From sequence record MK327934.1: a stretch of DNA of 64,000 nt. One strand, 5' to 3'. Numbering within the stretch: the stretch's first letter is position 1; every line of letters begins with the position of its first letter. Both the position numbers and the translations under genes were made by a program. This document shows positions 44,965 to 51,764 of the stretch, piece by piece. Source of the stretch: Escherichia phage vB_EcoM_G2469. The notes under the pieces are model-generated. The model was given only the letters and a program-made list of their open reading frames with translations. It did no database searches and was not told the DNA's origin.

Positions 44965-45467
44965 TTAGAAATATTTTTTGTATGAATTGATTACATTTTG
45001 GTCTACATCATTATCAATTTGTGCGACAAGATAAGAACTGATTTCAACTTCTTGTGGGGCTGCTTGAACCAAATCAGAGTTCAAATACTCACGAATCCAT
45101 GGAATAGGATGACGAGTTGATACGTCTTTAAGAGGACATGGCAGACCACAACTACGCATACGAGACACGGTAAGATAATCCACAAATTCACTTAGGATTT
45201 TAACATTTAGACCTGGAAGAGCACCATCTTTAAACAAGTGTTCAGCCCATTCTTTTTCTTGAGCGTTAACTTCCATGAAAATATCAACTGCTTCTTGTTC
45301 ACACTCTTGAGCAATTTTGACCCATTCATCACCGTCTTCGCCATCTTGTAAAGCACGAATAATATATTGAGTGCCCTTGAGGTGGAGCTGTTCATCACGA
45401 GCAATGAACTTCATAATCTTGGCATTACCTTCCATGATTTCCATATTCTTGTGGAAGTTAAAGGTAC
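44965..45467 (-). CDS. nrdB: ribonucleotide reductase small subunit NrdB, exon 2
   Basis: Encodes (C)TFNFHKNMEIMEGNAKIMKFIARDEQLHLKGTQ... matching R2 region after FYVSFAC; exon starts after intron-terminal G. Confidence 0.8.
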
Positions 45468-46558
45468 CGTTATGTTCGATTGAGCTCGCTAATTCTCAAC
45501 CCGTTCTCTTATGAACTGCTACATATTACTATGCAGACCAGACTATATCACAATCCCAGAGGGATTCTCCCCATTTCGAGTCGCTTGACCCTACGTCCGA
45601 AGACTAGTCGTTGAACCTTGCTTTGCAATTGTCGCCGTGCCATCGTTTATATGTTGATGGTGATAAATCTTTCTTATCACAATATGGACAATTCAATTGA
45701 ATTCTATTTGGATTTAATTTACATCTGTCATTATGTTTTAGATAAAATCCAGGACCTTTACCAATGTGACCGCAGAAATCACATGTGATTTCTTTTTGTG
45801 CAGGATGGGTCCCGTTCTTAACCATTTCTAATGTTTTTGCTGATGTTCTTTTCTTATGGTCTTCTGACAAGAAATGATGTGAACCGTCATTTACCCGTTT
45901 TGATTGAGTTTCTGACTGCATTTTACCACCGCAAAATACATGAGTACCTTCTTTTATAGCTGCAATATTGCGTTCTTTAACTTTTGCAATATGCTCAGCT
46001 TGTTGAAAATTATGTATACCTAATGCAACTCTATTTAAATTAGATTTACGCTGTATTTCACCGTCTAAAAGATGAAATGTACCATTTTCTATCTTAGATT
46101 TAATAGAGGCAATATTTTTAGCTCGTACTTCAGGGATATTAAAAATCTGGATTTCTCTAGATTTTGCGGCTTTAGAAGCTAATTCAGAAATTTCTTCAGG
46201 AGAATATTTCATTCTAAGCTTTATAGCATGACAAGCCTGGTAATCTTTTTGAGCTAAATGTATATCATAATGTTCCTGTATAGAAAGGCACATCAAATTA
46301 TCTAAATCATTATTTTCACGGTTACCGTCTTTATGATGGATTTCGTATGTTCTTCCATCAGAATCTTTAGGTATAGGTCCGTTAGCATCTATCCAAATTT
46401 TTCTATAGTTCAATTGTGCATCCTCTTAAAAGTATAATCATATTTATATTATACTAATTAAAGGTGCAAGCAAAACCTTGGCTGCTAGTTTTCCTATAAA
46501 GGACTTTCCAGCAATTAAAGGAGTTTTCGATAAACGTTACCGTTTAAAGGCGCATTTT
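45468..46558 (-). mobile_element. group I self-splicing intron in nrdB carrying a homing endonuclease ORF
   Basis: 1091 nt between inferred splice sites (exon 1 ends ...UUUGCGU, intron ends ...AUAACG); restores the conserved FAC codon and frame; boundaries are inferred. Confidence 0.75.
45604..46413 (-). CDS. intron-encoded HNH homing endonuclease I-TevIII (full length)
   Basis: 269 aa inside nrdB intron; HNH-like EIHHKDGNRENNDLDNL; C-terminal Cys-rich zinc-finger-like region. Confidence 0.85.
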   Translation of the reverse strand: MNYRKIWIDANGPIPKDSDGRTYEIHHKDGNRENNDLDNLMCLSIQEHYDIHLAQKDYQACHAIKLRMKYSPEEISELASKAAKSREIQIFNIPEVRAKNIASIKSKIENGTFHLLDGEIQRKSNLNRVALGIHNFQQAEHIAKVKERNIAAIKEGTHVFCGGKMQSETQSKRVNDGSHHFLSEDHKKRTSAKTLEMVKNGTHPAQKEITCDFCGHIGKGPGFYLKHNDRCKLNPNRIQLNCPYCDKKDLSPSTYKRWHGDNCKARFND

Positions 46559-47234
46559 ACGCAAAAGATACATAAAAACGAATAGCTTCTAAGGCATTAA
46601 TAACGTGCAAACAGAGGTAAAGAGATTTCATTAGCTCACGCTTCCAATATGTCTCATGCTCAATAGCATCTTCAATAACGTCTTCGTCTGCATTAATTTC
46701 TTTTTGGTATTCGATATCAGCTTTAGCGTTTTCCCAATAACGAGCTTTAACCAGAACATCATCATAATATCGTCCGATAGATTCGGCACGCTTCATAATA
46801 GCTTCATCTAATACAATCTCATCAAACACCTTCGATGGATCTGTATAAAGATTTCGCATAATATGAGTATATGAACGAGAGTGAATAGTTTCACTGAAAG
46901 TCCATGTAGCAACCCATGTATCTAATGAAGGGTCTGAAAGCAATGACATAAGTACCGCAGATGGTGCTCTACCTTGGATAGAATCTAATAATGATTGATA
47001 CTTAAGGTTGTTGGTAAAGATGTCCTGTTGGAACTGTGGAAGCTTATTAAACTGGGCCGAATCCAACATCAAGTTTACTTCCTCGGGACGCCAAAAGAAC
47101 GAGAGCTGCTTTTCGATAAGCTCTTCAAAAACTTTATGACGCTGAATATCATACCGTGCGAGGCCAAGACCAGAACCAAAGAACATCGGTTCATTCAAAA
47201 CATCGACTTGTTGTGTGTTAAAAACTGTACTCAT
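46559..47234 (-). CDS. nrdB: ribonucleotide reductase small subunit NrdB, exon 1
   Basis: From MSTVFNTQ... to ...ALEAIRFYVSFA; diiron/tyrosyl radical R2 motifs; in-frame stop lies in the intron. Confidence 0.85.
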
Positions 47235-47288
47235 TATATTTCTCACTTAGTTATTAACTCATCCATGAGTAAATTATAATAAAAAGTC

Positions 47289-49887: not shown

Positions 49888-50199
49888 TTATACCGCCATT
49901 TTAGCTTTGATAGCTGGATGTGATTCGTAATTTTTAAGAACGAAATCAGAATGTGTCATTGTTCCAGTAACCCAGTCCATTTGGATTTTTGTAGGCCAAT
50001 TCTCAAAATTACTAGGCCAATTAATTTCAAGAGAACATAACTCTTTAGGTTCACGACGAAGAACTTCTTTGCATTGTTCTACATGATTGCGGTAGATATG
50101 CGTGTTGCCGCCTGAGAACACTAAATCACCTGGGATAAGGTTACACATCTTCGCTACAATATGCGTCAAGGCAGCGTAAGAGGCAATGTTGAACGGTAG
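49888..50199 (-). CDS. td: thymidylate synthase Td, exon 2
   Basis: Encodes LPFNIASYAALTHIVAKMCNLIPGDLVFSGGNTHIY...; exon begins right after intron-terminal AUG. Confidence 0.9.
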   Translation of the reverse strand, partial: LPFNIASYAALTHIVAKMCNLIPGDLVFSGGNTHIYRNHVEQCKEVLRREPKELCSLEINWPSNFENWPTKIQMDWVTGTMTHSDFVLKNYESHPAIKAKMAV

Positions 50200-51215
50200 C
50201 ATTATGTTCAGATAAGGTCGTTAATCTTATCCCGGAATTATATCCAGCTGCATGTCACCATGCAGAGCAGACTATATCTCCAACTTGTTAAAGCAAGTTG
50301 TCTATCGTTTCGAGTCACTTGACCCTACTCCCTAAAGGGATAGTCGTTAGGCATTTATGTAGAACCAATTCCACTTATCAGATTTTACACGGTAAGTAAC
50401 TAATCCTGATGAAATTTCAAAATGTCTAGCCGCATCGGCTGCACATTCAAAAATAATCCCATCGCATGAAATCTTTTTGATGTTAGCTGGCTTTTTGCCT
50501 TTCATCTTTTCAGATAGTTTAGTTTTAGTTTTTTCTGAATGTTTGTGATTAAAGAACGGGTTATTTTCACCTGAACGTTTTCGGCACTTTCCACAAGTAT
50601 CGGCCGAAGATGGTATGCGAACACCGCATTTACAAAACTTGTGGTTTTCTGGATTCCATCGGCCATTTTTACTTCCGTGTTTACCATAAAGAGCTTTCCG
50701 ACCATCAGGACCAAGCTTAAGCATCTTAACTTTAACAGTTTCAGCTCGTTTCTTAGCAATTTCTTCTTTTAATGGATGATTTGAAAGCACATCGCCAAAA
50801 GACGCATCAGCAATATTATATCCATTAATTTTAGAATTTAGCTCTTTAATCCAAAAATTTTCTCGTTCAATAATCAAATCTTTCTCATACGGAATTTCTT
50901 CCAGTACAGAGCATTCAAAAACATTACCATGTTTATTAAAAGACCTTTGAAATTTTATAGAAGAGTGAACACCGTTTTCAAGGTCTTTAAAATGTCTCTT
51001 CCATCTTTTCTCAAAATCTTTAGCACTTCCAACATACACTTTACCGTTTAAAGTGTTTTTAATCTGATAAATTCCGCTTTTCATAAACACCTCTTTTTAT
51101 ATAGAAGTATTTATTAAAGGGTAGTCCTACAATTTAGCACGGGATTGTCTACTAGAGAGGTCCCCCGTTTAGATAGATTACAAGTATAAGTCACCTTATA
51201 CCTAGGCCTAAATTA
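50200..51215 (-). mobile_element. group I self-splicing intron in td carrying I-TevI
   Basis: 1016 nt, same length as T4 td intron; 5' end UAAUUAGGCCUAGGUAUAAGGUGACUUAUACUUGUAAUCUAUCUAAACGGGG... almost identical to T4 td intron as recalled. Confidence 0.9.
50347..51084 (-). CDS. intron-encoded GIY-YIG homing endonuclease I-TevI
   Basis: 245 aa from MKSGIYQIKNTLNGKVYVGSAKDFEKRWKRHFKDLE...; GIY-YIG motif; matches T4 I-TevI. Confidence 0.93.
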   Translation of the reverse strand: MKSGIYQIKNTLNGKVYVGSAKDFEKRWKRHFKDLENGVHSSIKFQRSFNKHGNVFECSVLEEIPYEKDLIIERENFWIKELNSKINGYNIADASFGDVLSNHPLKEEIAKKRAETVKVKMLKLGPDGRKALYGKHGSKNGRWNPENHKFCKCGVRIPSSADTCGKCRKRSGENNPFFNHKHSEKTKTKLSEKMKGKKPANIKKISCDGIIFECAADAARHFEISSGLVTYRVKSDKWNWFYINA

Positions 51216-51764
51216 ACCTAAGAAAACATCTACACTGCGTTGATACCATTGTAAATCAAGATGTCCATTACGCACATTAAATTGATAGAACATATGACAA
51301 GGAGGAAGAGCCATTTGGTCAATTTCGGCTGGGTTCCATGCAGAAACTATTTGACGACGATCATTAGGAAGAGCTTTAATGCGGTCGATAGTTTTGACCA
51401 ATTGGTCTACACCACCAAAATCACGCCATTGCTTACCATAAATAGGACCAAGTTCGCCGCTATGATATCCAAGGTCTTTTGCCTGATTTTCATAGTTGTC
51501 GTCCCAAATAGTTTTACCTTGAATAAGACTACCATGAGTACGAATACGCAAATCATTAACATTGGTAGAACCAGACATGAACCACAGTAACTCGGCAATA
51601 CAAGCTTTCCATGCTAATTTCTTAGTTGTTACTGCAGGAAATCCTTTAGTAAGGTCCCAACGTAATTTAGTTCCGAACAGGGCAATAGTGCCGGTACCTG
51701 TACGGTCGTCTGTTTCGTAGCCATTTTCTAAGATATCTTTAATCAGGTATTGGTATTGTTTCAT
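51216..51764 (-). CDS. td: thymidylate synthase Td, exon 1
   Basis: 183 codons MKQYQYLIKDILENGYETDDRTGTGT...PPCHMFYQF...QRSVDVFLG then in-frame UAA in intron. Confidence 0.93.

Follow-up and report, generated by a model that had tools for sequence, protein, structure and literature searches.

A full-length RB3-type nrdB group I intron with an intact I-TevIII gene in Escherichia phage vB_EcoM_G2469

A 1091-nt insert splits nrdB at an unambiguous position

Within the 64,000-nt stretch of Escherichia phage vB_EcoM_G2469 DNA analyzed here (MK327934.1; hereafter the window), the minus-strand ORF list contains nrdB in two pieces, an N-terminal NrdB fragment (...AIRFYVSFA) ending at 46557 and a C-terminal fragment ending at 44965. 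Is this a gene broken in two by a free-standing endonuclease gene, or a single gene interrupted by an intron that is removed from its RNA, and is such an intron still equipped to move? The locus is composed as follows:

47234..46559, minus strand: nrdB exon 1, 676 nt, ending ...TTTGCGT, with U as its last base
46558..45468, minus strand: group I intron (subgroup IA-type), 1091 nt, with 46558 as first base and the terminal G at 45468
45467..44965, minus strand: nrdB exon 2, 503 nt including the stop codon, starting GTACCTTT

The insert starts with AAAATGCGCC and ends with ...ACATAACG. Joining of the two exons gave a CDS of 1179 nt that encodes 392 aa and contains no internal stop codon (...AIRFYVSFACTFNFHKNMEIMEGNAK... 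around the junction; a longer stretch of the joined product reads ...FYVSFACTFNFHKNMEIMEGNAK...). In the unspliced RNA, an in-frame UAA is formed across the 5′ splice site (GCG U/AA, with the slash marking the site). Alignment with the intronless nrdB of Shigella phage JK36 revealed a single gap of exactly 1091 nt, located between the T and the G of the JK36 junction (...TTCGCAT/GCACC...). As a shift by one base in either direction would lose this T or G, the splice boundaries are unambiguous. Between the spliced window CDS and JK36 nrdB, 4 of 1179 nt are different (in exon 1, only positions –5 and –2), and the two 392-aa proteins are identical. The terminal G at 45468 and the open joined frame are as expected of a group I 3′ splice site. 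The split gene with its 1091-nt insert at 45468-46558 is thus real, and the original prediction proved exact in every coordinate on the minus strand; its splice sites, deduced from an exon ending in U and an intron ending in G, are supported by the gap relative to JK36 and the identical spliced protein. Here, nrdB is consequently annotated as one joined 392-aa CDS, as opposed to the two fragments found in many public records.

The ORF is embedded in a complete group I core

A search of the window against Rfam at gathering thresholds (50 bits for the group I model RF00028) returned no match. With E-value thresholds, RF00028 was recovered at 33.9 bits (E = 2.4e-6), the 3′ half alone being correctly aligned. 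The window stays below the cut-off because an 810-nt ORF sits in the P6a loop (L6a): the ORF-less CE1 intron (304 nt), whose ribozyme core is base-for-base identical to that of the window, scored 68.6 bits (E = 6.9e-16), and the SG1 intron (420 nt) 57.9 bits. As the ORF-less homologue passes the threshold, the miss was not counted against the intron; in the absence of a gathering match in the window, the group I family call therefore rests on homologues. The covariance-model search that had been proposed as a check reached the gathering score with CE1, but not with the window itself. More generally, phage introns that bear an ORF escape the Rfam group I model when its gathering score is applied. 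The end of the RF00028 match (45519) was considered as an alternative 3′ splice site and rejected: it would join GCGU to CAGUUCAUAAGAGAACGGGUUGA, leading to a stop after six codons, and JK36 puts the junction at 45468/45467. The match ends at 45519 because the model has neither P9.1 nor P9.2, and its end point is not a splice-site call.

Using an ORF-deleted construct, helices P1, P2, P3, P4, P5, P6, P6a, P7, P7.1, P7.2, P8, P9, P9.1 and P9.2 were mapped at the following positions:

46550..46562, minus strand: P1, formed by exon GCGU (46562-46559) and intron GCGC (46553-46550); the pair at the 5′ splice site is a U-G wobble
46532..46545, minus strand: P2 hairpin AAACG-GUAA-CGUUU, with two pairs compensatory in SG1 and UTK0003
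46465..46523, minus strand: 5′ half of the core, including the 5′ strands of P3 (46523-46518), P6 (46482-46481) and P6a (46474-46465)
46513-46508 with 46488-46483, minus strand: P4
46503-46500 with 46495-46492, minus strand: P5
45468..45627, minus strand: 3′ half of the core, from the P6a and P6 3′ strands (45627-45615) to the terminal G (45468)
45609-45605 with 45545-45541, minus strand: P7, GACUA/UAGUC
45604-45595, minus strand: P7.1, GUC-UUCG-GAC
45591-45578, minus strand: P7.2, GGGUC-AAGC-GACUC
45572-45567, minus strand: 3′ strand of P3
45566-45552, minus strand: P8
45536-45519, minus strand: P9
45516-45503, minus strand: P9.1
45501-45478, minus strand: P9.2

From P1 to P9.2, 74 of 74 drawn pairs are standard. 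This includes the entire P3 to P8 core with the P3/P7 pseudoknot and the guanosine-binding helix P7, whose strands lie inside the Rfam-aligned consensus strings CAACGACUA and GAUAUAGUCU. P7.1 and P7.2, a hallmark of subgroup IA, are present; their pairs are invariant and hence without covariation support. Across four distinct cores, 99.7% of cells were paired, compared to 33-43% when the partners were slid. Compensatory double changes occurred in four pairs (two in P2, one in P5 and one in P9), although with just four distinct cores the statistics are weak, and covariation is to be regarded as supportive of the drawn structure, but not strongly so. An unconstrained minimum free energy (MFE) fold recovered P1, P4, P5, P6a, P7, P7.2, P8, P9, P9.1 and P9.2. 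Together, the CE1 score for an identical core and the complete set of standard pairs corroborate the classification as a group I intron. Self-splicing with a guanosine cofactor is suggested by the near-identity of the core to that of the T4 nrdB intron, whose splicing is established (PMC2988022, PMC1865063).

An open reading frame for an I-TevIII-type HNH endonuclease

The P6a loop accommodates the coding region of the endonuclease:

46413..45604, minus strand: I-TevIII ORF, 269 aa plus stop codon, UUG start, in the P6a loop

This ORF overlaps the ribozyme core with its last eight codons and its stop (P6a 3′ strand to P7); its last 24 nt double as the 3′ strands of P6a and P6, as J6/7 and as the 5′ strand of P7. 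Of the intact 269-aa ORF originally predicted, length and open frame (46413..45604) were upheld, yet its start codon is TTG, not ATG. The UUG is located seven bases downstream of AAGAGGA, and the same UUG is found in the record of phage RB3.

Assignment to the I-TevIII-type HNH endonucleases was borne out by a match to Pfam HNH_3 (residues 4-48, 6e-13), by a match to PHROG 12324 ("intron-like DNA endonuclease"; residues 1-269 of 269, 1.9e-193) and by identity to RB3 I-TevIII at 268 of 269 residues, the sole difference being D23Y. The RB3 intron homes, and cleavage by its endonuclease requires H26, H27, N39 and H48 (Robbins et al. 2007, PMC1865063), all of which are present in the window protein. 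The RB3 enzyme further contains two CX2CX12-13HX3C zinc fingers (C211/C214 and C242/C245) that bind zinc and DNA (PMC1865063). In the window, zinc-finger motifs are found at residues 211-231 and 242-263, with C211, C214, C242 and C245 all in place. Searching the PDB sequences with I-TevIII yielded no solved close relative, but only a chance match (E = 0.29), and a Pfam FlgM match in the linker region (residues 74-114; 26.2 bits at a cut-off of 25) was likewise taken as a chance match.

A related entry illustrates how an unusual start codon may affect annotation. Phage 348Ecol098PP, whose intron is also 1091 nt long and carries 7 substitutions relative to the window, is annotated with a 229-aa 'intron-associated endonuclease 3' (1908-2597 of the compared locus). 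Given that the true start codon is UUG, the start of this endonuclease has probably been miscalled.

The insert is a known element, found elsewhere at different stages of ORF loss

Descriptions of the nrdB intron, of its splicing, endonuclease and regulation, and of the T4 deletion derivative date back to about 1990; the RB3 nrdB intron with I-TevIII reportedly goes back to Eddy and Gold in 1991. A megablast search of 50,697 phage records with the insert gave matches in 128 of them, 84 of which cover at least 80% of the insert. Public nrdB alleles without the intron number roughly 500. Copies in Escherichia phages vB_EcoM_KAW3E185 and AV121 were 100.0% identical over 1091 nt, and so was the intron of Shigella phage JK45 (1091/1091). 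The comparison with RB3 and T4 that had been called for gave 1090 of 1091 identical positions for RB3 (the sole difference being at intron nt 212) and 98% identity to the T4 nrdB intron outside a deletion within the ORF. The insert is therefore almost certainly an RB3-type full-length nrdB group I intron whose I-TevIII gene is intact, that is, an element already known and with identical public copies. What the present analysis contributes in practical terms are its precise coordinates, the joined-CDS annotation and the miss at the Rfam gathering threshold.

The RB3 record has a joined nrdB CDS with I-TevIII inside. Its intron shares with that of the window the gene, the insertion site, the 1091-nt length, the UUG start, the HNH motif, the two zinc fingers, the late promoter and the hairpin. 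The differences lie in residue 23 of I-TevIII (D in RB3, Y in the window), in a mobE gene between nrdA and nrdB that is present in RB3 but absent from the window, and in the flanking exons, which are only about 80% identical, whereas the introns are 99.9% identical. This exon divergence is explained by the Mosigvirus-type (JK36-like) nrdB that hosts the intron in the window.

In the T4 record, nrdB is likewise joined and I-TevIII is called defective. The T4 intron has the same insertion site and the same ribozyme core, with few differing core bases, including compensatory changes in P9. By alignment, its length of 598 nt results from the absence of two single bases and of a 491-nt piece of the ORF; with this piece the HNH domain is lost and the frame is shifted, and what remains of the ORF product is 97 aa long. 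Removal of the 598 nt from T4 nrdB yielded a 388-aa NrdB without stops, spliced at the homologous sites. The original description of a shorter T4 intron with a truncated I-TevIII and a full-length RB3 counterpart thus turned out to be correct (598 vs. 1091 nt).

Among the compared phages, the nrdB intron is found in several stages of ORF loss, namely at 1091 nt, 598 nt (T4), 420 nt (SG1) and 304 nt (CE1). The deletion within the P6a loop differs between the shortened introns, and the core is intact in each.

Expression signals upstream of I-TevIII

Three elements are located around the start of the I-TevIII ORF:

46417..46468, minus strand: RNA hairpin pairing the Shine-Dalgarno sequence AAGAGGA (46427-46421) with upstream CCUUU
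46441..46448, minus strand: T4 late-promoter consensus TATAAATA, in the hairpin loop
46456..46475, minus strand: operator-like sequence TTTTGCTTGCACCTTTAATT, sharing 17 of 20 bases with the spliced homing site (-8..+12), just upstream of the late promoter

A 71-nt segment (46475-46405) folded with an MFE of -14.9 kcal/mol (z = -3.5), and 0 of 200 shuffled sequences folded as well. The late promoter occupies a homologous position in T4 and RB3 and is conserved in both. A hairpin that hides the ribosome-binding site has been described for I-TevI, II and III (Edgell et al. 2010, PMC2988022); late transcripts are not long enough for the inhibitory structure to arise, and a putative I-TevIII operator for autorepression has also been proposed (PMC2988022). 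By analogy to T4, I-TevIII of the window may be regulated in the same way.

Exon footprints suggestive of homing

The best 20-kb matches of the window were Mosigvirus genomes, at about 97% identity. The T4-type homing site and the corresponding JK36-type site read as follows:

T4-type homing site: ...TTTTGCGTGTACC...
JK36-type site: ...TTTCGCATGCACC...

Over the 200 nt flanking the insertion site on either side, window and JK36 are distinguished by positions –5, –2 and +2 only, and all three differences are synonymous. The G at –2 is a P1-pairing base, and the U at +2 could extend a short P10. At +17, +23 and upstream of –74, the window has kept JK36-type bases. AV111 and 348Ecol098PP are donor-type at +17 and +23, and in JK45 the exon is donor-type (RB3-type) between –162 and –76, a region in which the window is JK36-type. 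Co-conversion of flanking exon sequence during homing is well documented (PMC2790892, PMC2988022), and the limits of the co-converted tracts may differ between these phages, lying within –73 to +16 in the window, reaching +23 in AV111 and 348Ecol098PP, and extending upstream to –162 in JK45. As judged from sequence comparison, the footprints resemble the outcome of several events, by homing or recombination, that entered a single nrdB background and differed in their co-conversion ends.

We see an even chance that these alleles form a natural series of separate homing products from one Mosigvirus-type nrdB, represented without intron by JK36 and with intron by three co-conversion end points. 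If so, an active I-TevIII intron would have spread recently and repeatedly between Tequatrovirus and Mosigvirus. I-TevIII is an HNH dimer that cuts 14 and 16 bp upstream of where the intron inserts (PMC2988022, PMC1865063), and the tract in the window would be unusually short, yet span this –14/–16 cleavage site. The exon polymorphisms would then provide a clean natural example of homing tracts.

T4 depends on MobE for trans-homing (PMC2790892). Unlike in T4 and RB3, no mobE is present between nrdA and nrdB in the window, and any mobility would therefore depend on I-TevIII itself. The interval from the nrdA stop to the nrdB start comprises just 54 nt (47235-47288); T4 has mobE and nrdB.1 in this place, and RB3 mobE. 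As a separate observation, a stretch of exon 1 at 46634-46720 (about –162 to –76) is hypervariable, with ~50% identity to RB3 and indels in T4. Among the E. coli-phage alleles compared, it adjoins, on the upstream side, a nearly invariant block that flanks the intron.

A model for the nrdB intron and its alternatives

We propose that the nrdB pre-mRNA folds into the subgroup IA ribozyme mapped above, from P1 to P9.2 and including P7.1 and P7.2, and that, as expected from homology to T4, this RNA is catalytic. The intron would excise itself through two guanosine-initiated transesterifications, joining ...UUUGCGU to GUACC... for translation of the 392-aa NrdB. On unspliced molecules, the in-frame UAA at the 5′ splice site stops ribosomes and keeps them out of the intron. 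The gene in the P6a loop is predicted to supply an endonuclease with an N-terminal HNH nuclease domain and two C-terminal zinc fingers, by reference to the published activity of the RB3 protein. Repair of the resulting break from an intron-carrying genome would copy the intron along with flanking exon sequence, in keeping with the observed footprints. In transcripts started upstream, the hairpin would bury the Shine-Dalgarno sequence, and the late promoter in its loop would give rise to a transcript too short to form the hairpin, as published for T4. Finally, the operator resembling the homing site beside this promoter may allow I-TevIII to repress its own gene.

It is hardly credible that the insert stays unspliced, with nrdB having been broken by a free-standing HNH gene into two halves that are translated separately and come together as a functional protein. 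Many public records do list two nrdB CDSs plus an endonuclease, exon 1 ends with an in-frame UAA, and an ATG is available 26 nt into exon 2. However, the ORF has all elements of a group I core on its two sides. Outside the ORF deletion, the insert shares 98% identity with the T4 nrdB intron, which is annotated within a joined CDS and whose splicing is established in the literature (PMC2988022, PMC1865063). Joining at the junction yields exactly the protein that the intronless allele encodes.

It is also improbable, if less far-fetched, that the intron splices while its I-TevIII is inactive or weakened despite the open frame, so that the element would be immobile on its own and be kept by vertical descent or trans-mobilisation. 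The single substitution relative to the only assayed enzyme falls three residues before the catalytic H26, with D23 in the biochemically tested RB3 protein and Y23 in the window. Furthermore, the start codon is UUG, the trans helper gene mobE is not next to nrdB, and decay appears frequent given how common eroded or ORF-less copies are (T4, 598 nt; SG1, 420 nt; CE1, 304 nt). Against this, the frame is open for 269 codons, every residue shown to be necessary is there, RB3 has the same UUG start, and the exon footprints are suggestive of a recent arrival by homing in this nrdB background. Y23 also occurs in I-TevIII of JK45, AV111, 348Ecol098PP and even the divergent UTK0003 (241/269 residues identical to the window), arguing for conservation; it is probably a common state and not a private lesion. 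We thus favor an RB3-type intron that is spliced out of nrdB and encodes an intact endonuclease.

Possible related introns in the window and beyond

In the marine, N4-like Pseudoalteromonas phage pYD6-A (NC_020849), an 'ATPase' CDS is split and contains an internal ORF (about 1720-2590 of the compared locus). RF00028 scored this insert at 23.4 bits only. Over 87 nt at its 3′ end, which comprises the P7 3′ strand, P9, P9.1 and P9.2, it shares 86.5% identity with the nrdB intron; elsewhere the two are dissimilar.

A second split gene in the window is td, encoding thymidylate synthase (49888-51764, minus strand; exon fragments 51764..51213 and 50202..49888). The td insert (about 50203-51212) contains a GIY-YIG ORF at 50347-51090 (MKSGIYQIKNTLNGKVYVGS...) and, judging by its sequence, is arranged like the T4 td intron, its ORF being I-TevI-like. 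Like the nrdB insert, it was not reported by Rfam at gathering thresholds in the window. The T4 td intron with I-TevI resembles the nrdB intron in being of subgroup IA, in residing in a nucleotide-metabolism gene, in carrying its ORF in a peripheral loop, and in combining a late promoter with a hairpin that sequesters the ribosome-binding site. I-TevI itself acts as a GIY-YIG monomer, with cuts 23 and 25 nt upstream of where its intron inserts (PMC2988022, PMC1865063).
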